Origin: an uncultured Mycoplasmatota bacterium
GTDB lineage: Bacteria > Bacillota_I > Bacilli_A > RF39 > UBA660
Reading direction: 5' to 3'
NCBI GenBank assembly: GCA_948434005.1
Contig: CAOJEH010000005.1
Span: forward strand, 23,372-87,371
Length of the DNA: 64,000 nt
Under the pieces are notes generated by a model. That model did no database searches, had not been told where the DNA came from, and was given only the letters and a program-made list of their open reading frames with translations. Below are positions 12,023 to 49,925 of this stretch, piece after piece. Every line of letters begins with the position of its first letter. Within the stretch, counting starts at the first letter, position 1. The position numbers and the translations under genes were made by a program.

Positions 12023-12399
12023 GGGGCTGATTGGTTTCGACAGGAATATTAGAGCATAGATGGCAAGTCGAAGGTTCACGTTACGAACAAACAAAAATAA
12101 ACGCAAACAAAATTAAAAATGCATTTGCAAACATGTTTGGTACAAACCAAGCTGTTTCTTTTGCCTAATAAAATAGGGCAATGCGCTCTTTCTTATCTTC
12201 ACCTATGAGATAATTAAGGGTTTATATTAATAGGTTATAGCTATCTTTTGTCTAGAAGATGGAAAGAATTTAGAGACTAGTATATTATCTTGGTCGTTAA
12301 CTACTTGGATGATATATGAATATAATTAGTTAACTAAACTTGTAGAGGTTTATGTATCGGTATTTTTGGACAGGAGTTCGATTCTCCTCAGCTCCACCA
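12023..12399 (+). ncRNA. ssrA: Transfer-messenger RNA (tmRNA, SsrA)
   Basis: The 5' end GGGGCTGATTGGTTTCGACAGG and the 3' end GGACAGGAGTTCGATTCTCCTCAGCTCCACCA form the tRNA-Ala-like acceptor/T-arm. The internal tag frame ends in tandem TAA TAA at 12166-12171. smpB is adjacent. Confidence 0.95.
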
Positions 12400-27469: not shown

Positions 27470-27545
27470 GCCGATTTAGCTTAGTTGGTAGAGCAACTCA
27501 TTCGTAATGAGTAGGTCGAAGGTTCAAATCCTTTAATCGGCACCA
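27470..27545 (+). tRNA. tRNA-Thr (anticodon CGT)
   Basis: 76-nt cloverleaf read by hand: acceptor gccgatt/aatcggc, D-arm gctt-agttggta-gagc, anticodon stem actca/tgagt with loop ttCGTaa, T-arm gaagg-ttcaaat-ccttt, and an encoded CCA. Confidence 0.9.
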
Positions 27546-34230: not shown

Positions 34231-34301
34231 AAAATTACCTAGGAAAAATATTTCTATTGAGTTATAATAGTTTTGCAGAGTAGTATATGGAAGGAGAAAA
34301 A

Positions 34302-35078
34302 ATGAGTAAAACTAAGCTGTTAGTAATTGATGATAATAAAGATTTAGTTAGTATGATAAAGGAATATTTTAAAAATCATAATGATATAGTTGTTTCTTTA
34401 GATGCTAATGATGGAGTAGAAGGATTAAAACTAATTGAGAAAAGAAGGGAAGATTATGATGTAATTATTCTTGACTTAATAATGCCTAATAAAGATGGTA
34501 TAAGTGTTTTAGAAACTATGAGAAAGAAGAATATTTCTAAAAAGGTTGTAGTATTAACTTCTTATAATAATCCTGAAATTATAAGAAGAGTATCAGAATT
34601 AGGAGTTAATTATTATATTTTAAAACCTTTTGAACTATCCGAATTAGAAAAGAGAGTTATGGAACTATCAGATAATTTATTATATAATGGTAAAACTGTA
34701 GATTTATATCATAATAATTTGCAAATATCAACAACTAAGATATTACATGAGTTAGGAGTTCCATCACATATTAAAGGTTATCTATATATTAGAGAAGGTA
34801 TAATGATGCTTTATGAAAGACCTGAAGTTATTGGTGGAATAACTAAAGAGTTATATCCAGAAATTGCTAGTAAGTATAATACTACAGTTTCTCGTGTTGA
34901 AAGAGCAATAAGACATGCAATAGAAGTTAGTTGGAATAGAGGTAATTGGCAACTTATGGAAGAAATATTTGGTCATAGTGTTGATATAGATAAAGCAAAA
35001 CCTACGAATTCAGAGTTTATAGTTACAGTAGCAGATAAACTTAGATTAGAATTTAATAAACCTTCAGTAGTAAATTAG
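34302..35078 (+). CDS. spo0A: Sporulation master response regulator Spo0A
   Basis: Receiver domain ([19 protein letters not shown]) plus the Spo0A-specific C-terminal DNA-binding domain ([36 protein letters not shown]). ATG 34302 follows AAGGAG. Confidence 0.92.
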
Positions 35079-37952: not shown

Positions 37953-38267
37953 ATGTCAAAAGAAAGGTATGTTTATGATAAAGTCTTTAAAGATTATGGT
38001 AAAGTCATTTTGACAGTTAGTGATGTACTTAAAGAAAGAAATATTAATATGTATAAATTAAGTAAATTAACAGGTATTAAATGGAATATTATAAAAAAGT
38101 ATGTAGAGGGTAGATTATATAGAGTAGATTTAGATTTGCTATCACGGATCTGTTATGCGTTAGATTGTTCACTGGATGAATTGATTCATTATGAGTATTC
38201 CCCTAACGAGAGTATAAGTATAGTAAAAAAACGGAATAAAAAAAGAAATTATATTATATCAAAATAA
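37953..38267 (+). CDS. XRE-family helix-turn-helix transcriptional regulator
   Basis: The Cro/C1-type HTH (NMYKLSKLTGIKWNIIKKYVEG) is followed by DLDLLSRICYALDCSLDELI. Confidence 0.75.
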   Translation: MSKERYVYDKVFKDYGKVILTVSDVLKERNINMYKLSKLTGIKWNIIKKYVEGRLYRVDLDLLSRICYALDCSLDELIHYEYSPNESISIVKKRNKKRNYIISK

Positions 38268-38390
38268 TAAAACTATGTCTTATATAGACTATATCTAAAT
38301 AGATGATACTTAAACAATTATATTCTAATTATGGAGATATTTATAACTCTTTTTTTTTGCTATTATATTTTGTCAACAGGGGTGTTCAAT

Positions 38391-38852
38391 ATGAGTAAAA
38401 AACAAAAGATTAGTAAATTTGAATCTATTTATGAAATAAAGAGTTGTCCTAAAAGTTTTGAAAATTATTATTATAAAATTTCTATTGTATGTAAAGATTT
38501 GCCATATGACTTTAGAAGTAAATTAAGATATTTGAGAGATAGTATAGGTCTAACTAGAGAAAAATTAGAGGAACAATCTTATATAAGTTCTCAAACAATA
38601 AAAGAAATAGAAACTAATGAGAAGAGAGGATATTCACTTGAAACAATTATTGCTTTGTGTGTAGGGATGAAATTGCCACCAGAATTTAGTTTTGATTTAC
38701 TTAGAGTAGCTGGTTTTTATATAGAAAATTATAATAATGAAAAATATTGTCTGTATTGTTATATATTACGTAACCTATATTTTTGTGAAATAGACTATGT
38801 TAATCAAGTATTAAAAATGAATAACTTATCTCCTATAAGCCAACAAAAATAG
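38391..38852 (+). CDS. XRE-type HTH-domain protein
   Basis: The probable start is ATG 38391 (MSKKQKISKF) after GGGGTG. The central HTH is LRDSIGLTREKLEEQSYISSQTIKEIE. The ORF-track N-terminal extension (from 38331) has no RBS. Confidence 0.55.
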   Translation: MSKKQKISKFESIYEIKSCPKSFENYYYKISIVCKDLPYDFRSKLRYLRDSIGLTREKLEEQSYISSQTIKEIETNEKRGYSLETIIALCVGMKLPPEFSFDLLRVAGFYIENYNNEKYCLYCYILRNLYFCEIDYVNQVLKMNNLSPISQQK

Positions 38853-38880
38853 ATTAAATTTATAATTTTTATTTTCAAAT

Positions 38881-38967
38881 GGTACATCACACGTACTGTA
38901 AACTTAATCTTTATTATGAGAGAGTAATCATATAAAGGAGGTAGTTTAGTATGAAATAGTTAATTTA
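38881..38967 (+). promoter_or_regulatory. Conserved upstream module, copy A (precedes the lysis cassette)
   Basis: It starts with GGTACATCACACGTACTG (GTAC-N7-GTAC inverted arms). It aligns without gaps with 40671-40757 at roughly 55 of 87 positions (hand count), including TAYTATGAGA and AGTATG...TAATTTA blocks. Confidence 0.6.
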
Positions 38968-39012
38968 TTTATATGTTATTGATCTATATTAATTAGGAAA
39001 GAAGGGATAAGT

Positions 39013-39318
39013 ATGATTATTAATTATTTACCAATTATATCTATTATTTGCACTATAATTACCGTATTATTAACTTTTTTAACATATAAGGGAAATATGA
39101 ATAGTGATAATAAAGAGGAAATAGAGGAACGAGTAAAAAGAGATACAACTATATCTACAAAACTAGATTTAGTTATTACTGGTAACGTAGAATTGAAAAA
39201 TGAGATTAAAAATTTAAATAATAAATTTGATGATATTAGCCAACGTGTTGCAAGATGTGAAGAAAATACAAAACATGCACACGAAAGAATTGATAATTTA
39301 GAAAGAAGATTGAGTTAG
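39013..39318 (+). CDS. Membrane-anchored coiled-coil protein in the XhlA-like position of a lysis cassette
   Basis: An N-terminal TM segment (YLPIISIICTIITVLLTFLTY) is followed by a heptad-rich region (ELKNEIKNLNNKFDDISQRVARCEENTKHAHERIDNLERRL). It lies immediately upstream of the holin. Confidence 0.4.
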   Translation: MIINYLPIISIICTIITVLLTFLTYKGNMNSDNKEEIEERVKRDTTISTKLDLVITGNVELKNEIKNLNNKFDDISQRVARCEENTKHAHERIDNLERRLS

Positions 39319-39329
39319 AAGGTGATGTA

Positions 39330-39566
39330 ATGAAGAAGATAAAAAAGAAATTAAGTTCCATTTTTAAAAATGATATTGTAAGAAGAATTTTTTGGACATT
39401 TATAGAAGGGTTTTTAGGTGGATTTTATGTAACCTTATCTACAGCTTCAAATTATAATATAGCAATCTTTAAGAGTGCTTGTATTGGAGGTTTAGCAGCA
39501 GCAATTTCTGCTATAAAGAATTTACTTGTAAATTATATAAGAAAAAAGAAAGACGGAGTAATATGA
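39330..39566 (+). CDS. Phage-type holin
   Basis: 78 aa with a basic N-terminus, the motif VRRIFWTFIEGFLGGF typical of Firmicute phage holins, two hydrophobic segments and a charged C-terminus (RKKKDG). Its stop overlaps the next gene's start (ATGA). Confidence 0.7.
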   Translation: MKKIKKKLSSIFKNDIVRRIFWTFIEGFLGGFYVTLSTASNYNIAIFKSACIGGLAAAISAIKNLLVNYIRKKKDGVI

Positions 39567-40501
39567 GAAAGGGTCAGAAATCTAGTAATAAAGGAATTGA
39601 AAACTTTTTATGTCCTTTTACTGATATGTATATTAGCCAAGATAGTGGAGGTGCATATTCACATAAAGGAATAATGGCAAATGATGTTAGAGGAGTTCAA
39701 GCTGGAGTTAGATATCCTTATTATGCTCCATGTACCTGTAAATGTCTTAAAACTTATCCTATTACTGGACAAGTAATGTGGCAATCAGTAAATAAAGTTA
39801 GATTTGCTAATGGAAGAATAGACTACGCAACATTTATAACAGCTCACGATGATACTATGGATGTCAAAATTGGGCAAGTTATTAAACAGGGTAAACAAAT
39901 TGGAAATATGGGTATAAAAGGAAATGCAACAGGCGTACATTGCCATATTCAAGTATCACAATCTAGTGATACTTCTTGGATTAAAAATCAATATGGAAAT
40001 TATCGGTTTAATCACGAGTATGATTTGAATGATTGTTACTTTGTTGATGATACTAATATTATTAAAGGTAATGATAAAAAATGGAGAACCACTAAAGATA
40101 TAACAGTAAAGGAAGTTTCTGTTAATAATATAGAAATAGTTGATCAAATACTTCATGTTGGTTCAAAAGTTAAGTTTGATGGAATTTTCAAAGTAGATAT
40201 ATTGAAAAGCCCATTATCAACAAATTTATTTGGAAATATAAAATTGACCGGTGTTTCGTATGACGAATACTACCACGAATCAGCAAAAGCATATCATTGG
40301 ATACCATTAGATGATTTTACAGAAGTAGATAAATATGGTTCTTCTAAAAATCAGGATGATATTGTAGTGGGTGGGAAGAGTTATGTTATTAACAAAAATA
40401 TTTATACAGTAAAGAAAATAGATGTAAAAACAAATTCTGCTCAATTAGAATTAAATGGTCGAGATATTTGGGTATATAGTACCTATTTGTATGAGGTATG
40501 A
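39563..40501 (+). CDS. M23 (LytM-type) peptidoglycan endopeptidase with a C-terminal SH3-like wall-binding region (endolysin-like)
   Basis: ATG 39563 follows GACGGAG and overlaps the holin stop. M23 metal motifs are present (YSHKGIMANDV; GNMGIKGNATGVHCHIQV, equivalent to G.tG.HLH). There is no signal peptide. The ORF-track start at 39479 lies inside the holin gene. Confidence 0.7.
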   Translation: MRKGQKSSNKGIENFLCPFTDMYISQDSGGAYSHKGIMANDVRGVQAGVRYPYYAPCTCKCLKTYPITGQVMWQSVNKVRFANGRIDYATFITAHDDTMDVKIGQVIKQGKQIGNMGIKGNATGVHCHIQVSQSSDTSWIKNQYGNYRFNHEYDLNDCYFVDDTNIIKGNDKKWRTTKDITVKEVSVNNIEIVDQILHVGSKVKFDGIFKVDILKSPLSTNLFGNIKLTGVSYDEYYHESAKAYHWIPLDDFTEVDKYGSSKNQDDIVVGGKSYVINKNIYTVKKIDVKTNSAQLELNGRDIWVYSTYLYEV

Positions 40502-40542
40502 TATTATGGATTTTTAAAGATTAATAACAATGAATAAAAATT

Positions 40543-40563
40543 AGGCTAAATTTAGCCTTTTTT
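40543..40563 (+). terminator. Terminator after the endolysin-like gene
   Basis: Perfect hairpin aggcta-aatt-tagcct followed by ttttt. Confidence 0.75.
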
Positions 40564-40582
40564 AGTTTTTTTAATACAAAAT

Positions 40583-40599
40583 GGTACATCATACGTACT
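40583..40599 (+). promoter_or_regulatory. Extra copy of the GTAC-N7-GTAC box
   Basis: GGTACATCATACGTACT differs from the box at 38881-38897 by a single base. Confidence 0.55.
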
Positions 40600-40670
40600 A
40601 TTTTGGTCTAACTTTTATAAAGAAAGAACCATATTTCGATTAAAATCCTTATAACTAAAGGAAAAATAAT

Positions 40671-40757
40671 AGTACATTCAGTATACTGTTAAATTCTTTT
40701 TTACTATGAGAAATTACTCTTAGAAAGTGAGATGGTGAGTATGGTTTGAGTAATTTA
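40671..40757 (+). promoter_or_regulatory. Conserved upstream module, copy B (precedes the collar-RHS unit)
   Basis: AGTACATTCAGTATACTG ... TACTATGAGAAATTACTC ... GAGTATGGTTTGAGTAATTTA aligns colinearly with 38881-38967. Confidence 0.6.
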
Positions 40758-40830
40758 ACGGTATATACATGCTTAACAATATTTTATAAAAGGTTATATA
40801 AAAATTTAAAAGAAAAGAGGAGAAATAAAA

Positions 40831-41394
40831 ATGAATGAATATATAACAGATGCCTTTACAAGAGAAGGCAATAATACAAATTTAGAGGTAAATAATTTAA
40901 ATGTAGGATGTATAACATCTACAAATAATAAGTTTGAACTAGATAGTAATGGTAATCTTACTGTACAAGGTTTAACTGTTCAAAATCAAAATATTGATAC
41001 TATCACTATGAGAGACTTTATATATCCAGTAGGATCTATTTATATGTCTGTAAATGGGACTAATCCAAGTACATTATTTGGTGGCACATGGGAGCAATTG
41101 AAGGATAGGTTTTTATTAGGTTGCGGTGATACATATCAAAATGGCACAACAGGAGGAGAGGCAACACATAAATTAACAACAGAAGAATTAGCATCACATA
41201 GTCATAGTTACTATAGGTATTCAACAACTACAGCAGCTACTGCATCTGGTCAAGGTCAAATATTAGATGCCAATAAAAGATGGTCTGCAGCAGCTGGTAG
41301 TAATACAAATTTAATATTTAATTCTGGTGGGGACCAACCACATAATAATATGCCTCCATATTTAGTAGTTTATATGTGGAAAAGAGTTAGTTAG
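40831..41394 (+). CDS. Phage tail-fibre / tail-collar-domain-like protein
   Basis: YPVGSIYMS...PSTLFGGTWEQLKDRFLLGCG...GTTGGEATHKLTTEELASHSHS...GGDQPHNNMPPYLVVYMWKR matches the collar/receptor-binding tip pattern of Firmicute phage tail fibres. The N-terminus is fibre-like (NLEVNNLNVG...LTVQGLTV). Confidence 0.65.
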   Translation: MNEYITDAFTREGNNTNLEVNNLNVGCITSTNNKFELDSNGNLTVQGLTVQNQNIDTITMRDFIYPVGSIYMSVNGTNPSTLFGGTWEQLKDRFLLGCGDTYQNGTTGGEATHKLTTEELASHSHSYYRYSTTTAATASGQGQILDANKRWSAAAGSNTNLIFNSGGDQPHNNMPPYLVVYMWKRVS

Positions 41395-41409
41395 GAGGAA
41401 TTCTAAAAA

Positions 41410-44400
41410 ATGAAAGAAATTGAATTAATAGAAAAAAGAAAACCTCGTGAAAAACATTTTTTACAAGAAGATGGTACTATAATAGCTAAAGTTTATAATG
41501 AAGATATTCATTATTTAAAAGATGGTGAATATAAAGAAATTGATAATACTCTAGTAAATAAAGATGGAATAATAAGTAATAAGAGTAATGATTATAAAGT
41601 TGAGTTTAAAGAAAACTTTAAAGAATCATTAATGAAAATGACTAAAGGTAATCACTATATTGACTTTAAAATAAGAGAATCAAAATTAGATAATTTAAGT
41701 ACAGAGAAAAGAAAACTATCTAAAAAAACAAAGAATATTACTTATAATAATATTACCGATGATATTAAAATCGAATATCAAACACTATCAGATAAAGTTA
41801 AAGAAACTATAGTTTTACAAAATGCAAATTATTCAGAATTAAGTTTTGAATTAGATACTAATTTAAGTTTGACAGAAGAAAATGGAGAAATTATATCAAA
41901 AGATATAAATGGGAATATAATTTTTAGAATTGAGAAACCATTTATGATAGATTCAAATGATATTAGGAATGATGATATTCATTACTCATTAAAAAGTTTT
42001 GATGATGGATATATTTTGACCCTAATTTTAGATGATGAATGGCTTAATTCTGAAGAAAGGGTATTCCCAGTATATGTTGATCCAACTATTACTAATAATA
42101 GTCAAAGTATAAGTTTATATGATACGTATATTTATCCAGGTGATACTAATGATACAAGAAGCAATAAACCTTATTTAAAAGCAGGTGTAGAAAAGGTTAA
42201 TGGAGTGGATAGAATTAATAGAACACTAATTAAATTTGATTTACCTGAGATAGGGACTGGGAGTGAAATAATATATGCTGAATTGGCTTTTATTGGATAT
42301 CCATCAACAATTAATTCATCAAATGTAAACTCAAAACTTGTAACTGTTCATAAAGTTACAAAAGATTGGAATGAGGATACTGCTAATTGGAATGAGATGA
42401 ATGATAGCTATGAAAAAAAGGTAGAAGCAATATTTGAGTGTTGGAGAAGCCAGATTTCTGGATCAGTTATTACACCTGTATTAGTAGGTGGTGGAATCAC
42501 TAATTTAGTAAAAAAATGGTATAAGGATACTCCTAATTATGGTCTTCTTATAAAATCTGTTGATGAAATATATACTGATTCGGACTATCCAGCATTCTTT
42601 TCTAAAAATAACACAATGTCAGAAAATCCTAAACCATGTTTTACTATATGTTATAGAAATCAAAATGGAATTGAACCTTATTTAAATTATAATGAGCAGT
42701 CTTTTTCTTCTGGAAAAACTTGTATTAATACATATAATGGAAATTTAACAGGTATTTTTGATATAGGTAAAACTAATGGGGGAAAACTTCCTATAAATTT
42801 ACAGCTAATATATAATACTAATGATGTAGTATTAAATAAGAATATTGGTTTTGGAAAAGGCTATAAATTAAATTATTATCAAACTATTAAAAAAGTTGAT
42901 ATATATGATGCAGAGTATTTAGAGTATGAAGATGAGGATGGGACACTTCATTATTTTCAAAAAAAACAAAAGTATTTTCCAATTGCTGATTGTGAAGATA
43001 ACATATATTTAGATGAGGATGGATTAGGTTTAGAAATAACAGAATTCAATAATAATTTAAATATGACAGATAAAAATGGTAATAAAATGATATTTGAAAG
43101 GAATGATGAAGTTTATTATCTTACAAAAATAATTGATGCTGATGAAAATTGTGTTATCATAGCTTATAGTAATAATAAAATCTCAAAAATCAAAGATCAA
43201 AGTAATCAAGAAATAAGCATTATATATAATAGCAATACAATTAATATAGTAACGCCAGAAGATGAAATTGTAGTAAATTATAGTGATAATAAACCAATAT
43301 CAATTCAAAGTATTAATGGAATACTATATATTGAATATAATGAAAATAATATTATTTCTAGTATTGAGGATATAACGAAAATAAAAATGAAATATTTTTA
43401 CTATCCAAAAAAACCATATAAAATTAAAAGTGTTCAACAATATGGTGTTAATAATACTATAGGGAAAACAATAGATTTGGAATATGGTTTTAAATCCACT
43501 ACCTTAAAAGATGATAAGAATAGATGCGAAACACTTATATTTAATGATGATGGAAATTTACTTTCTAAAAATAATTTGGAGGAAATTGATAGTATTGATA
43601 ATGCATATTCATTATCATTAGAATATGGTAAGTATGATTTTGGTATTACTAACAAAATAATATCTAGTTCAATTCCAACAAAATATATAAAGAATTATTT
43701 AAAAAATACAAGTTTTGAAACTGATGAAACAAATTTTTTAGTAGATGGTGAAATGTTAACTAAAAGCTTTTCAAGTGATATTGCTTATAGTGGAAAACGC
43801 TCGTTAAAGGTTGAATCTCAACATGCAGGTCAATCATTAACCCAATTAATATCTGTAAAAAAAGGAGAATATTATACATTTAGTGGTTATTTTAAAAATA
43901 GTGATCCATTTGTAATCTCTTTAAGTTATATTGATGAAAATGGTTCAAAGGTATTCAGTGAACAAACAGTAGAAACTTCTGATAAATTTGCTAGAAATGA
44001 TGTTACTATTTATTATAGTGATACTGCAACAAGTGATTTAAAAATATCTATAGAATTTATTTCTACTAATTTAACTTATATTGATGATATTCAACTTGAA
44101 GAGGGTGAAGTTGCAAATGCCTATAATCTAATAGAAAATTCTGATTTTTCGAGTGGTATTGCAGATTGGGAATTAACAGCAATAAATGAAAAAGGTGAAT
44201 ATGTATCTCCTAATCAATTTTTTGAATTAGTAAAATTTAATAATAATAAAAACACAGCATTAAAAGTTAAAATGGATCCTTCATACACTACTCGTTTTGA
44301 AAAAAAGTTTCCTATAAGTGGAGAATATGGAGATTTATATACGGTTTCTTTTTGGTATAAAAATGAGGGTGTAGAGGAATGCAGACAATATTCGGGTAAT

Positions 44401-47400
44401 AAGGTTGCAATTTATTACGAAGAAGGTGAGAATCAGGAGGGTCACTGTCCATTTTCAAGTCTGAATTTTGATAGAAATGAAAAATGGCAATTTTATAGTT
44501 ATAGAGTTAGATCACTGGAAGATTTTAAATCAATTAGATTAGTTTTTTCACAAAATACTCAAGCTAATGATTTTTACATAACAAATATTTCATTTTACAG
44601 AGAACCTACGAGTGGAGATTTTCAATATGATGAAAATGGTAATCTAGTTTCTATCACAAATCAATCAAAAGAAAAATATACTTTCAATTATGATAAGAAA
44701 AATCAATTGATTGAAACAAAAAGTGCATCAGGTGAGAGTATAAAATATGAATATGATAATGAGAAGCAGGATAGAGTATTAAGTTCAATGTCGGAAACAG
44801 GTATTGTTACTAAAATAGAATATGATAATTTTGGTAATGAAATAATGAAGTCTATAAAGAAATGCTATGTAAACGAGATTAAAAATGGAAATTATAGAAT
44901 TAGATGTAAAGGAACAAATAAATATTTAAAAGCAGAATTAAACTATGTTATGGCAGAAAAAGACTTGTGCAGTAATACTATTTGGGTAATTGAAAAGGAA
45001 AATGAAAAATTGATAATTAAATATTCAATTAATCCATCTTACTCAATTACATATGATAATGATAATATTTCACTATTAGAAAGTAATATTAATAATTCCT
45101 TTAGTTTTGAAGTAAATAGTGATGGAAGTATTTATATTTTTGTTGATAATGGAGAAGAAAGAAAATATTTAAAAGAAAGCGAAGGTAATATTATATTAGC
45201 TAGTACTAATGATAAAAATGAATCATGTAAGTTTTATATAGAGGACATTAGTGATATATTTTTAGAATCTAAAATTACATATACTAATGATGGTAAATAT
45301 ATATCAAGTATAACTAATGATAATAATCATACGACATTATATGAAACTAATCCAACAAAGGGACTGGTTACTTCAATTACCAATCCCAATGGTGTAAAAA
45401 CAGAGTATGATTATAATACTAAAAATCAAGTTTCATCAATAACTACAAAAGAAAAATCTGTTAACTATTCGTATAATACAGAAAATCTATTGTCAAGTAT
45501 TAGTTTAGGAAATAAAACTTATAATATTGAATATGATGATTTTCAAAATATTAAATCTATGAAAATAGGTAATTCTATAAAATTATTTGAAAAAATTTAT
45601 GAACTACAAAATGGAAATTTACTTAAAAATGTTTATGGTAATGATGATATTGTAATGTATGAATATGATAGATTTGATAGAAAAACAAAAATTATTAAAC
45701 AAAATGATACTTATGAAATAAAGTATGATAATAATGGAAGAGTTGCTAAAATCTTATCAAATGATAGAATTATTAAAAATAATTTTGATATTAGCGGAAG
45801 ACTATTTGAACATACAAATAATAATTTTAAAGTTAATTATACTTATGATTCTGAAAATAATATTATTAAAAAAATATACAAGTTAAATAATCGAAGAAAT
45901 ATTATAGAAAATACTATTAGTAATGAAAAATTGATAGAAAAATTTTCTGTAAACAATGATTTCGTTAATTATCAGTATGATGATTTAACTAGACTTATCG
46001 GAAAGACTATTAATAATAATTATAATATTTCATATAGATATAAAAATTATGGAAAAAAATCGACAATGTTAGTAGAGAGTATAAAAAATGGAGACGACGA
46101 ATATTCATATGAATATGATAGTCTTGATAATATAACACATATATATCATAATAATGAAATATTAAAAAAGTATGATTACAATGATTATAATGAATTAGTC
46201 TCAGAAGAGGATTATTTTGAAAATCAAAAAATCATATATAGTTATGATTTGTATGGAAATATTTTATCAAAAGTTAGAAAGACTTTAATTGATAATGAGA
46301 TTACATCTACAAATAGCTACGAATATGGTAATAATAATTGGAAAGATTTATTAACTAAGTATGATAATAAAGAAATAACATATGATGAAATAGGGAATCC
46401 TTTATCAATAGGAGAATTTATAAATCTTTCATGGATGAATGGTAAAGAATTAGTATCATATACAGATTCATCTAAACAATTGAATATTTCTTATAAATAT
46501 AATGAAGATGGCCTTAGGACAAGCAAAACAATAAATGGTATTAAAACTAACTACTATTTAGAAGGATCACAAATAGTTTTAGAAGAAAAAGATAATAATA
46601 TTAAACTATTTGTTAGAGACGAAACTGGGTTGATTGGTTTTAAATATAATAATAAAATGTATTATTATGTTAAAAATATTCAAGATGATATAATTGGTAT
46701 TTTAGATACAAATTATGAACAAATAGTAAAGTATTGTTATGATTCTTGGGGAAATATAACAAATATTATAGATAATAGTGATGAAAATATAGGATTAGAA
46801 AATCCGTATAGATATCGTTCTTATTATTATGATAATGAGACTGAATTATACTATTTAAATATGAGGTATTATAATTCGAAATGGGGAAGATTTATTAATG
46901 CAGATGAGATAGTAGGTGCAAGTGATACTCATACAGGTTATAATTTGTTTACATATGTTGGAAATAATCCAGTTAATAATATAGACGTTTCTGGAAGATT
47001 TTTAGGAAAATTAACAAAAACAATAAAAAAAGTTGCAAAAAAGGTTATAAACAAGATAACTAATGCAGTGTCAAAACCTAAAAAAACAAAATCATCTAGT
47101 AGTAAAAATGCATCCACTTCAATTAAAAAGACTTCATCTACAAAATCCAAATCTTCAAGTAAAAAAAGTGGTACTTTTGTAGCTGAATTTGGTGCTGGTT
47201 TTGGTGGATCAGTAAACATAGACTCTGTTGGTATTGGCGCATATCAAGATAAAACATTTGGATATAGTTTTCGAGATGGAGGATATTCAAATATCTCTGG
47301 TAATGGTTCAATTGGAATTGGTATTATAGGTGGTGGATTTAGCTATACACATGAATATCCATTTGATAAGGATGATTCAGGCCCATTACATAGCTCTTCA

Positions 47401-47556
47401 AGTCTTAATATCATTGATTGTGATAGAACAGAGCATGGTTGGAACTTTAAATTTTTAATATTTAGTTTTAATGATGATGGTAGTGGATTTGTTGGTATAG
47501 ATGCGGATATACATATAGCTCTTGGTGGCCATATCAAAATTGGTTTTGAATGGTAA
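41410..47556 (+). CDS. Giant DNRLRE-domain / RHS (YD-repeat) polymorphic toxin with an unassigned C-terminal domain
   Basis: 2048 aa with no N-terminal signal peptide. A DNRLRE-type domain starts around aa 224 (VYVDP...LIKFDL...VHKVTKDWNEDTANWN). Two carbohydrate-binding-like modules lie at about nt 43690-44610. There are many YD repeats (YDxxGN/YxYD). The RHS core is NPYRYRSYYYDNETELYYLNMRYYNSKWGRFINAD ... GNNPVNNIDVSGR, followed by a 185-aa tail. Confidence 0.85.
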   Translation: MKEIELIEKRKPREKHFLQEDGTIIAKVYNEDIHYLKDGEYKEIDNTLVNKDGIISNKSNDYKVEFKENFKESLMKMTKGNHYIDFKIRESKLDNLSTEKRKLSKKTKNITYNNITDDIKIEYQTLSDKVKETIVLQNANYSELSFELDTNLSLTEENGEIISKDINGNIIFRIEKPFMIDSNDIRNDDIHYSLKSFDDGYILTLILDDEWLNSEERVFPVYVDPTITNNSQSISLYDTYIYPGDTNDTRSNKPYLKAGVEKVNGVDRINRTLIKFDLPEIGTGSEIIYAELAFIGYPSTINSSNVNSKLVTVHKVTKDWNEDTANWNEMNDSYEKKVEAIFECWRSQISGSVITPVLVGGGITNLVKKWYKDTPNYGLLIKSVDEIYTDSDYPAFFSKNNTMSENPKPCFTICYRNQNGIEPYLNYNEQSFSSGKTCINTYNGNLTGIFDIGKTNGGKLPINLQLIYNTNDVVLNKNIGFGKGYKLNYYQTIKKVDIYDAEYLEYEDEDGTLHYFQKKQKYFPIADCEDNIYLDEDGLGLEITEFNNNLNMTDKNGNKMIFERNDEVYYLTKIIDADENCVIIAYSNNKISKIKDQSNQEISIIYNSNTINIVTPEDEIVVNYSDNKPISIQSINGILYIEYNENNIISSIEDITKIKMKYFYYPKKPYKIKSVQQYGVNNTIGKTIDLEYGFKSTTLKDDKNRCETLIFNDDGNLLSKNNLEEIDSIDNAYSLSLEYGKYDFGITNKIISSSIPTKYIKNYLKNTSFETDETNFLVDGEMLTKSFSSDIAYSGKRSLKVESQHAGQSLTQLISVKKGEYYTFSGYFKNSDPFVISLSYIDENGSKVFSEQTVETSDKFARNDVTIYYSDTATSDLKISIEFISTNLTYIDDIQLEEGEVANAYNLIENSDFSSGIADWELTAINEKGEYVSPNQFFELVKFNNNKNTALKVKMDPSYTTRFEKKFPISGEYGDLYTVSFWYKNEGVEECRQYSGNKVAIYYEEGENQEGHCPFSSLNFDRNEKWQFYSYRVRSLEDFKSIRLVFSQNTQANDFYITNISFYREPTSGDFQYDENGNLVSITNQSKEKYTFNYDKKNQLIETKSASGESIKYEYDNEKQDRVLSSMSETGIVTKIEYDNFGNEIMKSIKKCYVNEIKNGNYRIRCKGTNKYLKAELNYVMAEKDLCSNTIWVIEKENEKLIIKYSINPSYSITYDNDNISLLESNINNSFSFEVNSDGSIYIFVDNGEERKYLKESEGNIILASTNDKNESCKFYIEDISDIFLESKITYTNDGKYISSITNDNNHTTLYETNPTKGLVTSITNPNGVKTEYDYNTKNQVSSITTKEKSVNYSYNTENLLSSISLGNKTYNIEYDDFQNIKSMKIGNSIKLFEKIYELQNGNLLKNVYGNDDIVMYEYDRFDRKTKIIKQNDTYEIKYDNNGRVAKILSNDRIIKNNFDISGRLFEHTNNNFKVNYTYDSENNIIKKIYKLNNRRNIIENTISNEKLIEKFSVNNDFVNYQYDDLTRLIGKTINNNYNISYRYKNYGKKSTMLVESIKNGDDEYSYEYDSLDNITHIYHNNEILKKYDYNDYNELVSEEDYFENQKIIYSYDLYGNILSKVRKTLIDNEITSTNSYEYGNNNWKDLLTKYDNKEITYDEIGNPLSIGEFINLSWMNGKELVSYTDSSKQLNISYKYNEDGLRTSKTINGIKTNYYLEGSQIVLEEKDNNIKLFVRDETGLIGFKYNNKMYYYVKNIQDDIIGILDTNYEQIVKYCYDSWGNITNIIDNSDENIGLENPYRYRSYYYDNETELYYLNMRYYNSKWGRFINADEIVGASDTHTGYNLFTYVGNNPVNNIDVSGRFLGKLTKTIKKVAKKVINKITNAVSKPKKTKSSSSKNASTSIKKTSSTKSKSSSKKSGTFVAEFGAGFGGSVNIDSVGIGAYQDKTFGYSFRDGGYSNISGNGSIGIGIIGGGFSYTHEYPFDKDDSGPLHSSSSLNIIDCDRTEHGWNFKFLIFSFNDDGSGFVGIDADIHIALGGHIKIGFEW

Positions 47557-47566
47557 AGTAATAAAA

Positions 47567-47593
47567 GGGGGGAATTTTATAATCCTCCTTTTT
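47567..47593. terminator. Bidirectional terminator between the RHS gene and the convergent membrane-protein gene
   Basis: ggggggaatt / aatcctcc hairpin (one mismatch, one G-U pair), with an A-run before and a T-run after. Confidence 0.6.
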
Positions 47594-47635
47594 ATGCAAT
47601 GAATTTATACTACATTATATAAAATATTTATTATT

Positions 47636-47956
47636 TTATTCTTTTTTTTCTACGTTAACAAAATATTGATATTTTGTTTTTTTTCCATAATTATTTTCAA
47701 TAACAAAAGTTATTCTCTTTTCTCCGGGGGTTGTTGTATCAAGTTTTTTCGGTTTTGATATTACCTTTCCATACTTTATATTTTTTATATAAGATATATC
47801 TGTTCTATCTTCATATTGAGTAGCTTCCAAATTATTAAGTGATACAATTGGTCGTGTATGAAAAATATTAAGAAAATATATCCAAAATGTTATATATCCG
47901 ATTATACCTGAAACTGAGGATAGTATACCAAAACTAATTAAAACTTTTCTTTTCAA
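47636..47956 (-). CDS. Signal-anchored small membrane protein with a beta-rich ectodomain
   Basis: The best start is TTG 47956 (MKRKVLISFGILSSVSGIIGYITFWIYFL), preceded by GAGGTGAT. The ORF-track ATG at 47995 has no RBS. The C-terminal roughly 70 aa (TTPGEKRITFVIENNYGKKTKYQYFVNV) looks like a small beta-sandwich. Confidence 0.55.
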   Translation of the reverse strand: MKRKVLISFGILSSVSGIIGYITFWIYFLNIFHTRPIVSLNNLEATQYEDRTDISYIKNIKYGKVISKPKKLDTTTPGEKRITFVIENNYGKKTKYQYFVNVEKKE

Positions 47957-48430
47957 GAAAATCACCTCTTTTAATAATCTTGTTTCTAATATCATATCAT
48001 ATTATTTAACAAATATGAAGTTCTGCTAAATAAAATTAGAAGTGAAACTTAGCTGATTTTGAGTATTTATTTTTTCTATCTAAAATCCACTCTGCAGGAT
48101 AATTATATTTTTACATAATAATAAGTTTAAAGTAGTTATAAGTATTTTTCTATTTTTTATAAGATTATCAAGTTTCTTGATTGATACCAATATTTTTCTA
48201 TATTCTATATTGTGATATTTTTTATTGTAACTTATTTATCGTTAATAATTGAAAAATTTAAATTATCATTATAAACTATATTTATATTATTAGTTGATAA
48301 TGATTTATAATAAAGAGGTTATATTAATAGTAAAATAAGTTAAAATGTTAAGTGCAGTTGACAAATTTCCAACTACAATTGGTAGAGTGCAACTATAATA
48401 AAGTATATAATTTTTTTGAGGTGAGAGAAT

Positions 48431-49054
48431 ATGGATATTGGTGAAAGACTATTAGATTTAAGAAAATCTAAGAACTTATCACAAGAAGAGGTAGCTTATA
48501 AACTTAGTGTATCTCGTCAAACTATTTCAAAGTGGGAGACTAATCAAAGTAGTCCTGACTTTGATAAGATATTACCATTATGTGATTTATATGGTGTATC
48601 TACAGATTATTTGTTAATAGGAAATATGAAAAATGATAAAGAAAGTGATATTACTAAACAAGATATAAGAGAATTAAGAGCTAAGGGTATAGGAATTTCT
48701 GTACTTATGTATATTTTATCTGTTGCATGGATAACTATTGCAATACCATTTTTGGATATGGATCCTATTTTAGCGTCATCTATATTTTTAGTTATTTGTG
48801 GAATAGCTACTTATAAGATTGTTTATACTTGTATTAGATATAAGATAAAAAAAGAAGTAAAAGAAAATAAAAATAATAAAGTTGCAAAACAAATAAATGA
48901 GATTATATCATTAATAGTAGTCATAACATATTTTATAGTTAGTTTTACTACAGGATCATGGCATATTACCTGGATACTATTTATAGTTTGCGGACTATGT
49001 GAAGCGGTAGTAAAATTAGTATTTATGCTAAAGGAGGATAATAATGAAAAATAA
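48431..49054 (+). CDS. XRE-family HTH regulator fused to membrane-spanning segments
   Basis: The N-terminal HTH (LSQEEVAYKLSVSRQTISKWETNQSSPD) is followed by three or four TM helices. Confidence 0.75.
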   Translation: MDIGERLLDLRKSKNLSQEEVAYKLSVSRQTISKWETNQSSPDFDKILPLCDLYGVSTDYLLIGNMKNDKESDITKQDIRELRAKGIGISVLMYILSVAWITIAIPFLDMDPILASSIFLVICGIATYKIVYTCIRYKIKKEVKENKNNKVAKQINEIISLIVVITYFIVSFTTGSWHITWILFIVCGLCEAVVKLVFMLKEDNNEK

Positions 49055-49925
49055 GCCACTAATTATAACATTAATATGTTTATTAGTAATTACCTCTATA
49101 GGTTTAATTATATTTATGATATCAGTTATGAATAAAAAGATAAATTTTAGAGGCTTTTCTTATACTTATAAAGTTAGTAATAAATTAGTAATGGATAAAA
49201 ACTATAATAATAAATATGATAGTATAGAAATTAATTCTAATGATGCAGATATTTATATAAAAGATACTGATGCAGATAATATTAGAGTTGTTATTTATGG
49301 TGATAAAGAAAGATTAAATGTTAAAGATGATTCAAAATTAAAAATAGAGTTTGATGCAACTAAATGTATTGGTTTTTGTTTTAATAAAAAAATAAATAAA
49401 ATAGAAGTATATTTACCTAGTAATTATAATAAAGATTTAATTATTAATAATAACTATGGTGATATAAAAATAGGTAATACTTCTGCGAATATTATAGTTA
49501 ATGAAGATTGTGGAGATGTAGAAGTATCATCTGCTAAAAAAGTTAATGTAAAAAATAAGTATGGAGATATTAATATAGGTAAGGCTACTAATATAAATAT
49601 TAAAGCTGATTGTGGAGATGTAGATATAGGAGAAGCTAATTATCTTAATGTAAGTAATAAATATGGAGATGTTACTATAGATAAAGTTAACAATTATGTA
49701 AATATTATAGATAATTGTGGAGATATAGAAATTGATAATTTAAATATTACAAAAAATTCTAAAATAGAAGATAATTATGGTGATATAGAAATAGGTAATA
49801 CTAATGAAATTTACATTGATGCTAAAACTTCTTTAGGAGATGTAGATATAAATAAAAATTATCGTAAATCTGATGTTGTTTTAGATATTAAAAATGATTG
49901 CGGAGATATAGAAGTAGATAATTAA
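49044..49925 (+). CDS. DUF4097-family beta-repeat protein (putative adhesin-like)
   Basis: An N-terminal TM anchor is followed by alternating YGD[IV]xI and CGD[IV][ED][IV] beta-strand repeats, characteristic of DUF4097. It overlaps the upstream regulator gene by 11 nt. Confidence 0.7.
   Translation: MKNKPLIITLICLLVITSIGLIIFMISVMNKKINFRGFSYTYKVSNKLVMDKNYNNKYDSIEINSNDADIYIKDTDADNIRVVIYGDKERLNVKDDSKLKIEFDATKCIGFCFNKKINKIEVYLPSNYNKDLIINNNYGDIKIGNTSANIIVNEDCGDVEVSSAKKVNVKNKYGDINIGKATNINIKADCGDVDIGEANYLNVSNKYGDVTIDKVNNYVNIIDNCGDIEIDNLNITKNSKIEDNYGDIEIGNTNEIYIDAKTSLGDVDINKNYRKSDVVLDIKNDCGDIEVDN

Follow-up and report, generated by a model that had tools for sequence, protein, structure and literature searches.

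Toxin release by a lysis cassette is established for colicins, tailocins and the Yersinia Tc toxin, and RHS proteins are known to enclose a C-terminal toxin within a shell of YD repeats. A hallmark of exported toxins is a polymorphic C-terminus accompanied by immunity genes. Holin-dependent secretion of a non-lytic kind has been documented for TcdE, ChiWXYZ and TtsA (PMC9527704, PMC10109510, PMC13284979). Here we describe a locus from an uncultured Mycoplasmatota bacterium, located in a window of 64,000 nucleotides (the whole stretch of DNA that was analyzed), in which a phage-type lysis cassette precedes a fiber-like gene and a giant RHS gene. We consider it fairly probable that the locus is the domesticated end of a phage or tailocin late operon, now a self-contained module that would make a bacteriocin-like toxin and release it by lysis.

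A preliminary description, made from the letters of the window, had placed two XRE genes, a lysis unit and a fiber-RHS unit here, with virion genes absent nearby. All of these elements were recovered by sequence reading and profile searches, with Peptidase_M23, DNRLRE, Rhs_assc_core and RHS_repeat each matched in window proteins, and a search for capsid, portal, terminase, tail-tube, tape-measure and integrase genes between 27.6 kb and the S10 operon found none. The upstream flank encodes an M29 peptidase, Ham1, CdaA/YbbR, Spo0A, a DUF4143 ATPase and dinB, and the downstream flank an XRE-TM/toastrack pair. The first regulator (104 aa; 37953..38267, + strand) matches Pfam HTH_26 at 2.7e-15 and has an orthologue at the same position in related locus L010. 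The second (153 aa; 38391..38852, +), whose start at 38391 is backed by homologs of 153-156 aa, matches HTH_3 (9e-6) and phrog_4031 (2.4e-20) and shares homology with the C-terminal HTH domain found in 570-590-aa IrrE/M78-peptidase-HTH regulators, which fill its position in related loci (cluster c12, Peptidase_M78 plus HTH_3). XRE and IrrE-type regulators resemble those of mobile-element and defense loci, and an AAA_21 ATPase adjoins one relative, as might suit an abortive-infection or other defense island whose toxin and lysis genes would kill an infected host cell; such a role is highly implausible, because the 2048-aa product carries carbohydrate-binding modules, has a partner of receptor-binding type and belongs to a family with polymorphic C-termini and immunity genes, all of which point to extracellular action on other cells. 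The analysis also yielded no evidence of a defense family.

The lysis unit begins with an XhlA-like membrane coiled-coil accessory protein (101 aa; 39013..39318, +), which has an N-terminal TM segment and matches phrog_1863 at 5e-17 and, weakly, Pfam XhlA. It is followed by a 78-aa ORF with two hydrophobic segments (39330..39566, +), which we call holin-like from a weak phrog_443 holin match (3e-3 for the window protein, 5.5e-5 for one family member) and from its place after the XhlA-like gene and before the endolysin gene. The holin stop overlaps the start of the next gene in the sequence ATGA at 39563-39566, as had been reported. This third gene encodes an endolysin-type M23 peptidoglycan endopeptidase (312 aa; 39563..40501, +) that scores 29.9 bits against Pfam Peptidase_M23, for which the cut-off is 28.7 bits, and matches phrog_11037 (5.6e-31) and the endolysin family phrog_9066 (2.2e-20); it has a C-terminal domain of about 120 aa without assigned function and carries no signal peptide. 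The trio had been read as a TM coiled-coil protein, a holin and an M23 peptidase. Purifying selection acts on these lysis genes: dN/dS is 0.05-0.18 for the XhlA-like gene and 0.09-0.19 for the M23 gene, and across all three genes mostly 0.05-0.2, below that of the RHS gene. They are intact in all 13 of the related loci that have the cassette upstream of the toxin.

The second unit encodes a receptor-binding-protein-like partner, COL (187 aa; 40831..41394, +), and, after a gap of 15 nt, the RHS protein. COL had been taken for a tail-collar-like protein; the Collar family PF07484 was rejected, and the match is to PF21939 Gp10_C (6.6e-25), with PHROG tail and tail-fiber families. Its conservation profile shows an N-terminal neck (48 aa) that is conserved, a Gp10_C head domain whose loops vary, and no virion-anchoring N-terminal domain. 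Antireceptors of Lactobacillus delbrueckii phages share 42-47% identity with COL in their C-terminal parts. Like the RHS and M23 proteins, COL lacks a hydrophobic signal. A gene of this type lies directly 5' of the RHS gene in almost all of about 75 genome loci, so that the fiber-like gene, rather than the lysis cassette, is the universal partner of the RHS gene.

The RHS polymorphic toxin (2048 aa, with a cocoon of about 230 kDa; 41410..47556, +) matches NCBIfam DNRLRE (2.7e-22), YD_repeat_2x and Rhs_assc_core (2.7e-17) as well as Pfam RHS_repeat. Together with an AF2 model and Foldseek, these matches delimit an N-terminal all-beta domain (residues 1-230), a DNRLRE/CBM96-like domain (237-409), a CBM-like region (about 750-1060), the YD/RHS shell from about residue 1073, the Rhs-associated core (1777-1862) and the C-terminal toxin (1863-2048; nt 46996-47553). 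As the preliminary description had it, the protein has no hydrophobic N-terminus, and no LXG, PAAR or WXG domain was matched in it by Pfam or NCBIfam. The family has more than 500 homologs of about 2050 aa in uncultured gut Bacilli; the N-terminus is conserved, hydrophobic signals are absent from every one of 120 homologs, and the C-termini of 115 homologs fall into 21 unrelated groups. Past the RHS stop, the + strand of the window has no ORF of at least 31 aa, so no immunity gene is recognizable on the toxin strand, a point against the reading that we favor. The only candidate is a convergent ORF for a 119-aa membrane-anchored protein (47636..47995, - strand), which has no family match and uncertain membership in the locus. 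A related minus-strand ORF lies 3' of RHS in one relative (L008), and Imm44 lies 3' of RHS in another (L084).

Both units are preceded by a similar regulatory module. Copy 1 (38876..38959, +), conserved 5' of the xhlA-like gene in 13 loci, holds the inverted repeat GTAC-N7-GTACTGT (38882-38900), a TATGAGAGAG block (38915-) and the Shine-Dalgarno sequence GGAGG, and ends with a 2-codon mini-ORF, ATG AAA TAG (38951-38959). Copy 2 (40666..40749, +), conserved 5' of the fiber-like gene in related loci, holds GTAC-N7-ATACTGT (40672-40690), a TATGAGAAAT block, a Shine-Dalgarno-like GTGAGATGG and the mini-ORF ATG GTT TGA (40741-40749). The resemblance, already remarked upon, amounts to 63% identity over 82 aligned positions, against 30 +/- 6% and a maximum of 58% for random window pairs. 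The core GTAC-N7-RTACT occurs four times in the window (0.66 expected), three of them inside the locus. The terminator reported after the lysis unit is likewise present (40543..40568, +), with a 6-bp GC-containing stem and a 4-nt loop (stem-loop 40543-40558) followed by a T run. It splits the lysis unit from the fiber-RHS unit in the window, an observation that counts against our preferred reading of the locus. Just 3' of it lies a third, longer operator-like palindrome, AAAATGGTAC-N7-GTACTATTTT (40578..40603), also found 3' of the M23 terminator in L003, L005, L009, L016, L018, L019 and L023. In 1.58 Mb of related loci, the composite GTAC-N7-RTACTGT...TATGAGAAA...GGAGGTG occurs 28 times, always 5' of an xhlA-like or fiber-like gene and nowhere else, and regulator and operator module are found together in 13 of 13 loci with the upstream cassette.

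At least 13 species-level genomes have the order regulator-XhlA-holin-M23-fiber-RHS, in contexts that include an ICE (PrgI, VirB4-like, serine recombinases), a Mob_Pre element and housekeeping neighborhoods, all without virion genes; the predicted recurrence of holin, M23, fiber and RHS genes apart from phage structural genes is thus borne out. All carriers of the locus family are uncultured MAGs. A second architecture, seen in about 12 further loci, runs sigma-like gene, fiber, RHS and immunity genes, then holin and M23. Its own motif, GTCTAGTG-N5-6-YNAGT, occurs 14 times, always 5' of the fiber-like gene or the downstream holin. We infer that toxin and lysis units are co-regulated in each architecture, through a promoter/operator motif that its two units share. 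Across loci there are four holin families, including PF05105 (the TcdE family), which is present in some relatives with the second architecture, and other endolysin types as well. Linkage of lysis genes to the fiber-RHS pair is not universal: among 31 fully flanked loci, 22 have a holin or M23 gene near RHS, 15 have the two paired (always on the RHS strand, 0.3-3.1 kb away) and nine have no detected lysis gene within a search that covered about 5 kb 3' of RHS and modeled M23-type lysins. When 154 non-redundant flanking proteins were compared with PHROG families, endolysins and regulators recurred and no recurrent head, portal or tape-measure family was found; tail genes are missing within 10 kb of most loci.

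The relationship to phages is nevertheless evident on two IMG/VR contigs (L084 and L085), where lysis, fiber and RHS genes follow a siphovirus-type tail module: major tail protein, tape-measure-like protein, DUF6711, a 632-aa protein and a 650-aa Gp10_C fiber, then an M23 lysin (261 aa) that falls into the PHROG families of the window cassette, the fiber-like gene and RHS. No head genes were seen 5' of the tail module. Because of these contigs the module likely descends from a phage or tailocin late operon, and the adjacency of its genes could therefore be partly inherited and not selected. The view that the locus is no prophage late region holds for the missing virion genes and needs qualifying for this gene order. 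Every cassette protein, moreover, matches phage families, and the regulator family phrog_4031 is phage-associated. The locus might, then, be a decayed prophage or tailocin end in which cassette and fiber-RHS pair are neighbors by descent only, the RHS protein being moron-type cargo exported otherwise or never, and the lysis genes being relics or serving another element. We judge this unlikely, in view of intact lysis genes with low dN/dS in all 13 loci, a conserved promoter/operator restricted to the two units, a rearranged architecture that keeps the same coupling with other holin families and another motif, and ICE, mobilizable-element and chromosomal contexts free of virion genes.

A likeness to phage tail proteins is seen at the N-terminus of the RHS protein as well. 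By tblastn (1e-8), its residues 5-426 align with gp18 of Bacillus phage PBC1, whose gene lies 3' of the tape measure in place of Dit (PMC9128512), and among BFVD structures the N-terminal model is matched best by a Siphoviridae protein of 1379 aa (E 1.5e-26, TMq 0.69). COL corresponds to a head-plus-neck fragment of phage receptor-binding proteins, and L085 together with L098 looks like an F-type tailocin, with tail and lysis genes but without head genes over the upstream 10 kb. One could imagine the pair as part of the adsorption apparatus of a phage or tailocin encoded elsewhere, with RHS a toxin-bearing tail-tip protein and the cassette freeing particles, not a soluble complex. This seems distinctly unlikely when most loci lack nearby tail genes, the pair on L084 and L085 lies 3' of the lysis cassette and outside the tail module, COL has no anchoring domain, and the polymorphic C-termini and immunity genes mark exported toxins.

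In the lysis-released module that we favor, the XRE-type repressors would bind GTAC-N7-GTAC operators over the identical promoters of the XhlA-like/holin/M23 unit and the receptor-binding-like/RHS unit; upon induction, probably in some cells only, both would be transcribed together, as the conserved common module suggests. The RHS protein, with its core motifs, would fold in the cytoplasm, its shell enclosing the toxin, and would probably pair with a trimeric Gp10_C protein, to judge from near-obligate adjacency and two strongly conserved N-termini. The holin would give the M23 endopeptidase access to the wall, and the lysing cell would free the complex. Because RHS is signal-less and shares its promoter/operator element with the lysis cassette, release probably occurs by the bursting of some cells. 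Outside, the Gp10_C head and the RHS CBM-like domains may bind surface glycans of a target, to which the toxin would be delivered; freed M23 enzyme may also help to breach the target wall, and kin would be protected by immunity genes such as those seen in relatives. The original proposal, that the holin/M23 module frees the RHS toxin, is supported in part: it gains from recurrence without virion genes, purifying selection, the common module and the second architecture; it loses in that the fiber-like gene, and not lysis linkage, is universal, and in the phage kinship of the module.

TcdE, ChiWXYZ and TtsA, with the PF05105 holin of some relatives, offer precedents for a non-lytic, type-10-like route, in which the holin would be a conduit, M23 would remodel the producer wall locally or the target wall from outside, and the producer would survive. 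That route appears improbable here: the PHROG families are those of the phage-context lysin, and the cassette has the same full three-gene set, XhlA-like protein, holin and endolysin, as Bacillus and Clostridium phage lysis modules. We found no prior description of a lysis-linked, fiber-paired RHS module, and lysis would be a release route so far unreported for the RHS toxins of Gram-positive bacteria. The proposed release step would resemble those of colicins, tailocins and the Yersinia Tc toxin.

The genes named in the preliminary description were all recovered by ORF listing combined with Pfam, NCBIfam and PHROG scans of the window, which has a G+C content of ~25%. Two XRE regulators, identified by family scan (37953-38267 and 38391-38852), are followed, with every gene on the + strand, by a 101-aa membrane coiled-coil protein (39013-39318) that matches phrog_1863 (5e-17) and, weakly, XhlA; by a 78-aa holin-like protein (39330-39566), assigned from its TM segments, its position between the XhlA-like gene and the endolysin, and a weak PHROG holin match; and by a 312-aa M23 endopeptidase (39563-40501), which scores 29.9 bits against Pfam (cut-off 28.7) and matches the endolysin family phrog_9066 at 2e-20. 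Beyond the M23 gene lie a 187-aa fibre-like protein (40831-41394), the C-terminal 125 residues of which form a Gp10_C domain (PF21939, 6.6e-25), and, as the last gene of the set, a 2048-aa RHS protein (41410-47556) that contains DNRLRE, YD-repeat and Rhs-associated-core domains. Smaller features were confirmed too: read from the sequence, the M23 start overlaps the holin stop as ATGA (39563-39566), a terminator with a T run is located at 40543-40558, 15 nt separate the fibre-like and RHS genes, and the RHS, fibre-like and M23 proteins are devoid of hydrophobic segments. The Gp10_C, M23, RHS and DNRLRE domains were matched by family HMMs; the homology of the holin is weak, with phrog_443 matched at 3e-3 by the window protein and at 5.5e-5 by a family member.

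The upstream flank is of housekeeping character, with genes for an M29 peptidase, Ham1, CdaA/YbbR, Spo0A, a DUF4143 ATPase and dinB; downstream, an XRE-TM/toastrack pair precedes the S10 operon. Family scans of the window detected no phage structural or integrase gene within 10 kb on either side of the locus. The XRE-TM/toastrack pair (48431-49925), in which an XRE-HTH protein with C-terminal TM segments overlaps a toastrack DUF4097/LiaG-like protein by 11 nt, looks like a separate membrane-stress module directly 3' of the toxin locus. Elsewhere in the window we noted a tmRNA (12023-12399) whose tag peptide, ANKIKNAFANMFGTNQAVSFA, is unusually long, a tRNA-Thr(CGT) (27470-27545), and the location of the Spo0A gene (34287-35078), found here in a Firmicute of small-genome type and 25% G+C.

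More than 500 homologues of the RHS protein were retrieved from a collection of 5.8 billion proteins. Among the 120 matches listed, nearly all are 2030-2110 aa in length with 43-79% identity, and in many the match is limited to ~91% of the query, owing to a different C-terminus. These 120 homologues hardly vary at the N-terminus, MKEIELIEKRKPREKHFLQEDGTI..., which is hydrophobic in none of them; the start MKEIELIEKRKPREKHFL is kept in all of the sampled homologues, and a signal peptide was found in none of the 120 members. The last 150 aa of 115 homologues sort into 21 unrelated groups, and the toxin domains PF15607 and PF15654 are present in some homologues according to precomputed Pfam annotation. 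A conserved body joined to unrelated C-termini thus identifies a polymorphic toxin family. The shell of the window protein is covered by Pfam RHS_repeat (1.6e-21), NCBIfam YD_repeat_2x (7e-19) and a partial RHS_core match, its residues 1777-1862 score 63 bits against TIGR03696 Rhs_assc_core (cut-off 32.5), and TEN_YD-shell matches occur among its homologues. On this domain content, the protein is a predicted member of the RHS polymorphic toxin class. The suspected absence of LXG, WXG and PAAR domains was borne out, there being no Pfam or NCBIfam match to them in the window RHS, and profile searches of PDB sequences found no export or anchoring domain at its N-terminus. Small genes, Imm44 among them, lie downstream of RHS in relatives; in the window, no + strand ORF follows the toxin and the sole immunity candidate is a convergent 119-aa TM ORF.

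The toxin domain of the window protein (residues 1863-2048, nt 46996-47553) belongs to a recurrent group with at least 15 family members and is composed of an amphipathic helix rich in Lys, a Ser/Lys linker and an unclassified beta domain rich in glycine. This beta domain carries the conserved motifs FVAExGxGxG ... YQD ... HEYP ... FIGID ... GGHIKIGFE. Neither Pfam nor NCBIfam gave a match, a PDB sequence search was not significant, and an AF2 model (pLDDT 68) showed just an insignificant resemblance to small 8-stranded membrane beta-barrels (E ~0.07). The domain may define a family of membrane-active toxins that is new.

A profile of the first 440 RHS residues, designated A1, matched 75 loci in species-representative genomes, most of them with labels that denote uncultured Bacilli or gut MAGs of 'Tenericutes' type; a small number carry the labels Muribaculaceae, Bacteroides, Ruminococcaceae or Eubacteriales, and named examples are Clostridium sp. 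CAG:1000 and Candidatus Faecimonas. In essentially every one of these loci a fibre-like gene lies directly 5' of RHS, encoding 179-475 aa and occasionally up to ~650 aa with a collagen-like shaft. Matches of the window protein extend to tail-fibre families of PHROG, and it shares 42-47% identity with the C-termini of antireceptors from Lactobacillus delbrueckii phages. Residues 1-48 are 70-99% conserved over 39 species and the loops of the head domain are variable, as one would expect, at the level of sequence, for a receptor-binding protein that has a conserved docking or neck segment. Additionally, a coiled-coil protein of 65-158 aa (cluster c4), absent from the window, is encoded between the fibre-like and RHS genes in 19 loci, including L028, L031, L032, L037, L039, L042, L046, L049 and L053. 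It has no Pfam or PHROG match and may be an adaptor or chaperone.

To compare gene neighbourhoods, ORFs were called in all loci and clustered, and family HMMs were built and mapped back onto the loci. Two architectures emerged. The upstream type, found in 13 loci including the window, has the order regulator, XhlA-like protein, holin, M23, fibre-like protein, RHS; its regulator is either an XRE protein like the second one of the window or a protein of 570-590 aa in which an IrrE/M78 peptidase domain is joined to the same HTH. The downstream type, comprising ~12 more divergent loci, begins with a small sigma70-region-4 protein and the fibre-like gene and continues with an optional coiled-coil gene, RHS, an immunity-like gene, an optional small TM protein, a holin and M23. 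Its holins belong to three further families, one of them PF05105, to which C. difficile TcdE belongs. Other loci combine a holin with a non-M23 lysin, such as an SH3_3 protein in L095, and several endolysin PHROGs recur in proteins flanking RHS loci. Flanks of at least 9 kb on the upstream side and 5 kb on the downstream side were available for 31 loci. A holin or M23 gene was found in 22 of them, and the two are paired in 15 of the 31, in every case on the same strand as RHS and at a distance of 0.3-3.1 kb; these counts are a lower bound, because retrieval reached only ~5 kb past RHS and M23 lysins alone were modelled.

A complete prophage as the source was rejected for the window and the sampled loci. 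When 154 flanking proteins (non-redundant, at least 280 aa) were scanned against PHROGs, no head, portal or tape-measure family recurred; structural-type matches comprised two moderate ones (best E 3e-13) to one terminase-large-subunit family, a single tail protein and a single tail-collar protein. Capsid, portal, terminase and tail genes were absent from five individual loci (L003, L005, L094, L095 and L096). By precomputed Pfam annotation, L003 lies in an ICE, with PrgI, a VirB4-like ATPase and three serine recombinases, L094 in a Mob_Pre element, and L005 between housekeeping genes. The anticipated co-occurrence of holin, M23, fibre-like and RHS genes outside a phage structural context is thus seen in the 13 upstream-type loci, the settings of which include an ICE, a Mob_Pre element and housekeeping genes. 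Little supports the reading of the locus as a defence island. A further alternative, that the locus is the decaying end of a phage, is weakened by the recurrence of these neighbourhoods without virion genes. Selection points the same way: pairwise Nei-Gojobori dN/dS for six locus pairs is 0.05-0.18 for the XhlA-like gene, 0.09-0.19 for M23 and ~0-0.7 for the holin, a short gene with few sites. As these values are low, equal to or below those of the fibre-like gene and RHS, the lysis genes are maintained by selection, which argues against decay.

The regulatory elements shared by the toxin and lysis units speak against a decaying phage end as well. The repeated upstream module claimed for the window proved to be real, since its two copies, before the XhlA-like gene (38876-38959) and before the fibre-like gene (40666-40749), are 63% identical, a value that stands at 30 +/- 6% for random window pairs. 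GTAC-N7-RTACT, the core, has 4 matches in the window where 0.66 would be expected, and 3 of these 4 are in the locus. A composite element, consisting of aATrGTAC-N7-rTACTGT, a spacer of ~17 nt, TATGAGAAAnT...AGAAAnGGAGGTG and a mini-ORF of 2-5 codons, is located 5' of the xhlA-like gene in 13/13 upstream-type loci and also 5' of the fibre-like gene in most. The strict pattern has 28 matches in 1.58 Mb on both strands, all of them before an xhlA-like or fibre-like gene, and a longer palindrome with the same half-sites is present 3' of the M23 terminator in many loci. Most module copies end in a strong Shine-Dalgarno, GGAGGTG, followed by the mini-ORF, in the same position in the modules of loci L003-L076; the window mini-ORFs are ATG AAA TAG (38951-38959) and ATG GTT TGA (40741-40749), and they are reminiscent of minigene or leader-peptide devices.

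An RNA element in the module was considered and rejected. RNAalifold recovered the GTAC palindrome alone, with covariation absent, and the window leader had no match in Rfam, even when E values as high as 10 were admitted; therefore, the module is read as a DNA operator/promoter with a Shine-Dalgarno/mini-ORF leader. Because the element is found only where the XRE/IrrE-HTH regulator occurs, we infer that this regulator is its likely binder. SOS control was also rejected: the LexA (Cheo) box has 15 one-mismatch matches in the window against 10 expected, none of them meaningfully placed.

The sigma-type loci carry a different signal, GTCTAGTG-N5-6-YNAGT, with 14 occurrences that are always 39-97 nt upstream of a fibre-like gene (11 times) or a downstream PF05105 holin (3 times). 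Three of these loci have it before both units (L031 at 8737 and 16984, L039 at 8379 and 16995, L042 at 8757 and 17029), and in eight others it precedes the fibre-like gene. The motif is promoter-like and the loci that carry it encode the small sigma70-region-4 protein, which suggests a dedicated TcdR-like sigma factor. With two different shared motifs in two architectures, two independent regulatory solutions would tie the toxin to the lysis unit, so that cargo and cassette are linked and, as far as motifs can tell, co-regulated in both. In six sigma-type relatives, a known cis-regulatory leader precedes the fibre-RHS operon: the Rfam pemK RNA motif (RF02913; 44-60 bits, gathering score 34.8) lies ~50-150 nt 5' of the fibre-like gene in L063 (8623-8689), L065 (4457-4522), L062 (6106-6184), L050 (2391-2468), L054 (8678-8735) and L059 (7842-7921 and 21063-21142). 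This motif is absent from the window.

In IMG/VR, three close members of the family were detected with the A1 profile. In two of these viral-database contigs, L084 and L085, the genes before the pair encode a major tail protein, a tape-measure-like protein of 518 aa, DUF6711, a protein of 632 aa and a tail protein of 650 aa with Gp10_C at its end; two small ORFs come next, and then an M23 lysin of 261 aa, which falls into the same PHROG families as the window M23; the fibre-like gene and RHS close the cluster, with Imm44 next in L084. No head genes were found in 10 kb further upstream on the L085 contig, where LysR, radical SAM, NUDIX, AAA_21 ATPase and ABC transporter genes are located. L085:1-14899 and L098:1-13352 are IMGVR_UViG_3300006217_000383. 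This cluster looks like a candidate F-type tailocin with an RHS toxin, or a head-less prophage remnant. A further homologue, of 2178 aa, is encoded on the unannotated 'Bacteriophage sp.' scaffold MT835902, where the upstream genes are on the opposite strand.

The RHS N-terminus has phage relatives of its own. Residues 5-426 match gp18 of Bacillus phage PBC1 (tblastn 1e-8, identity ~23%), a 'YD repeat protein' that adjoins the tape measure on its 3' side and takes the place of Dit (PMC9128512). An AF2 model of residues 1-440 is all-beta (pLDDT 79), with a 1379-aa Siphoviridae protein as its best viral structural match (E 1.5e-26, TMq 0.69). Foldseek against the PDB matched the DNRLRE part to CBM96-type carbohydrate-binding modules only, gave no convincing match for residues 1-230 and did not recover a Dit-like fold. 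Together, the tail-module contigs and the phage relatives of the N-terminus argue for descent: the module most likely originated as the terminal part of a late operon of a phage or tailocin and, in most genomes, most likely shed the tail genes and kept the lysis genes, fibre head and toxin. The same affinities and tail modules support another possibility, that RHS and the fibre-like protein are parts of a particle encoded elsewhere, but the tail tube, tape-measure and baseplate genes are absent from the window and most loci, only L084 and L085 having a tail module, and even there the pair sits outside it.

Taking together the gene content, the absence of export signals, the linkage, the shared regulatory elements, the purifying selection and the C-terminal polymorphism seen in these loci, the best-supported reading is that of a co-regulated module which would make a toxin and release it by lysis. 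In this scheme, repressors binding at both promoters would keep them off; upon co-induction, the RHS cocoon and a Gp10_C trimer would build up in the cytoplasm, where they may form a complex, and holin, XhlA and M23 would then lyse the cell and free both proteins. Targeting would follow from binding of the Gp10_C head and the CBM-like RHS domains to glycans of the target cell, on which the C-terminal toxin would act. Non-lytic, type-10-like export and a target-side role for M23 are less probable variants of this model that would look the same in sequence. A bolder and decidedly tentative extension of the lytic model is that these loci constitute an undescribed class of Gram-positive weapon, a 'tail-less tailocin', in which a PBC1-type tail-tip module, a docked receptor-binding protein and a toxin cocoon are released by lysis. 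The ancestor of the RHS N-terminal module would then be the tail-tip protein found in place of Dit in PBC1-like siphophages, and a truncated phage receptor-binding protein would dock on it, making the pair a minimal adsorption device fused to a toxin cocoon. Such a device would be made in the cytoplasm, freed by the co-regulated holin/XhlA/M23 programme, widespread in uncultured gut Bacilli, and mobile on ICEs and mobilisable elements.

To our knowledge, the only characterised Firmicute RHS toxins are of the WapA type, exported by Sec and acting by contact. The family gives a testable answer to how signal-less RHS toxins might exit Gram-positive cells and find their targets, namely programmed lysis coupled through a shared promoter/operator, and targeting by a phage receptor-binding domain. 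Its scale is considerable, with >500 members and ~75 species-level genomes of poorly known gut Bacilli; the members are known from uncultured hosts, and the predicted coupling is seen in two independent ways. The supposition that the architecture is undescribed stands, in that a Firmicute RHS protein with holin/endolysin and a receptor-binding-like partner was not found in the full-text literature, the coverage of which was partial and in which absence is not proof; it is also missing from a 2012 catalogue of the trafficking modes of polymorphic toxins (PMC3482391). If correct, the lytic model would bring the interbacterial RHS toxins of Firmicutes under the lysis-cassette/type-10 logic already seen with Tc toxins, large clostridial toxins and colicins, document the paring-down of tailocin/phage late operons to a lysis-plus-toxin module, and offer a modular scaffold with swappable receptor-binding head and toxin, possibly for engineered targeted antibacterials. 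A defined regulatory element (operator, promoter and mini-ORF leader) is also supplied for experiments.

The Tc toxin loci of Yersinia entomophaga and Y. enterocolitica, where a lysis cassette mediates T10SS-dependent lytic release (PMC10847048, PMC10847046, PMC9718411), are alike in linking a large signal-less RHS-cocoon toxin to a phage-derived holin/endolysin cassette and in the proposed lysis of a producing subpopulation. Unlike the window locus, they are Gram-negative, include a spanin and direct a tripartite TcA/TcB/TcC complex against insect cells. The window locus comes from a Firmicute of Gram-positive type, an M23 endopeptidase serves as its hydrolase, and its RHS is one chain, from a family with immunity genes and with polymorphic C-termini of antibacterial type; in place of TcA there is a small phage receptor-binding-like protein. 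No large TcA-like neighbour gene and no SpvB/TcB-type Pfam match was found in the window, and the only PDB sequence match of the RHS C-terminal end, TcdB2-TccC3, is not significant (E 0.07).

The C. difficile PaLoc and related large-clostridial-toxin loci, with the sigma factor TcdR, the PF05105 holin TcdE and the endolysin remnant TcdL, likewise join a signal-less giant toxin to a co-regulated phage-type holin in a Firmicute, and a small sigma-like regulator together with a PF05105 holin also occurs in relatives of the window locus. The window itself is not of PaLoc type, having XRE regulators, no sigma factor and a holin of another family than PF05105. Furthermore, the PaLoc toxins are glucosyltransferases aimed at host cells rather than RHS proteins and have no receptor-binding-like partner, and TcdL is a degenerate fragment, whereas the M23 endolysin here is intact and under purifying selection. 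Colicin operons encode SOS-induced toxin, immunity and lysis genes, the lysis proteins being small lipoproteins and the colicins carrying their own receptor-binding and translocation domains; the bacteriocin BCN5 of Clostridium perfringens is associated with UviA/UviB. In these systems, as proposed here, an antibacterial toxin gets out through dedicated, co-regulated lysis of a few producers, and immunity shields kin. The loci described here differ from colicins in using a holin-endolysin pair, in having an RHS cocoon and a separate receptor-binding-like protein, and, in the window, in the absence of a LexA box.

Tailocins (F-type pyocins, monocins and diffocins) are phage-derived weapons that are released by their own holin/endolysin and use phage receptor-binding proteins for targeting, and in L085/L098 the fibre-RHS pair ends a head-less tail-plus-lysis cluster. 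Unlike tailocins, the window and most loci are devoid of tail tube, tape-measure and baseplate genes, and killing would be done by the RHS toxin and not by a tail. PBC1 gp18 shares its N-terminal ~420 aa, including DNRLRE, with the RHS family but is a 1063-aa virion tail protein with no polymorphic toxin end and no immunity gene. WapA-type toxins, such as those of Bacillus subtilis and Streptococcus suis (PMC12704120), likewise are RHS/YD polymorphic toxins of Firmicutes in which DNRLRE lies at the N-terminus and the toxin at the C-terminus; an immunity gene accompanies them. WapA, however, has a Sec signal peptide and wall anchors (LysM or wall-binding repeats) and acts by contact, while the window RHS family has no signal peptide (120/120) and no LysM, and is tied to lysis genes and a receptor-binding-like protein. 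No Pfam match to LysM or wall-binding repeats was obtained for the window RHS, and the annotated RHS neighbourhoods contained no LXG/WXG100 or EssC/Esx. The window locus therefore falls outside the complete prophages, the tailocins, the Tc toxins, the WapA/Sec toxins and the LXG/T7SS toxins. By analogy, its logic matches that of four systems: the release of Yersinia Tc toxins by a lysis cassette (PMC10847048), the C. difficile PaLoc, the colicin lysis genes and tailocin release.
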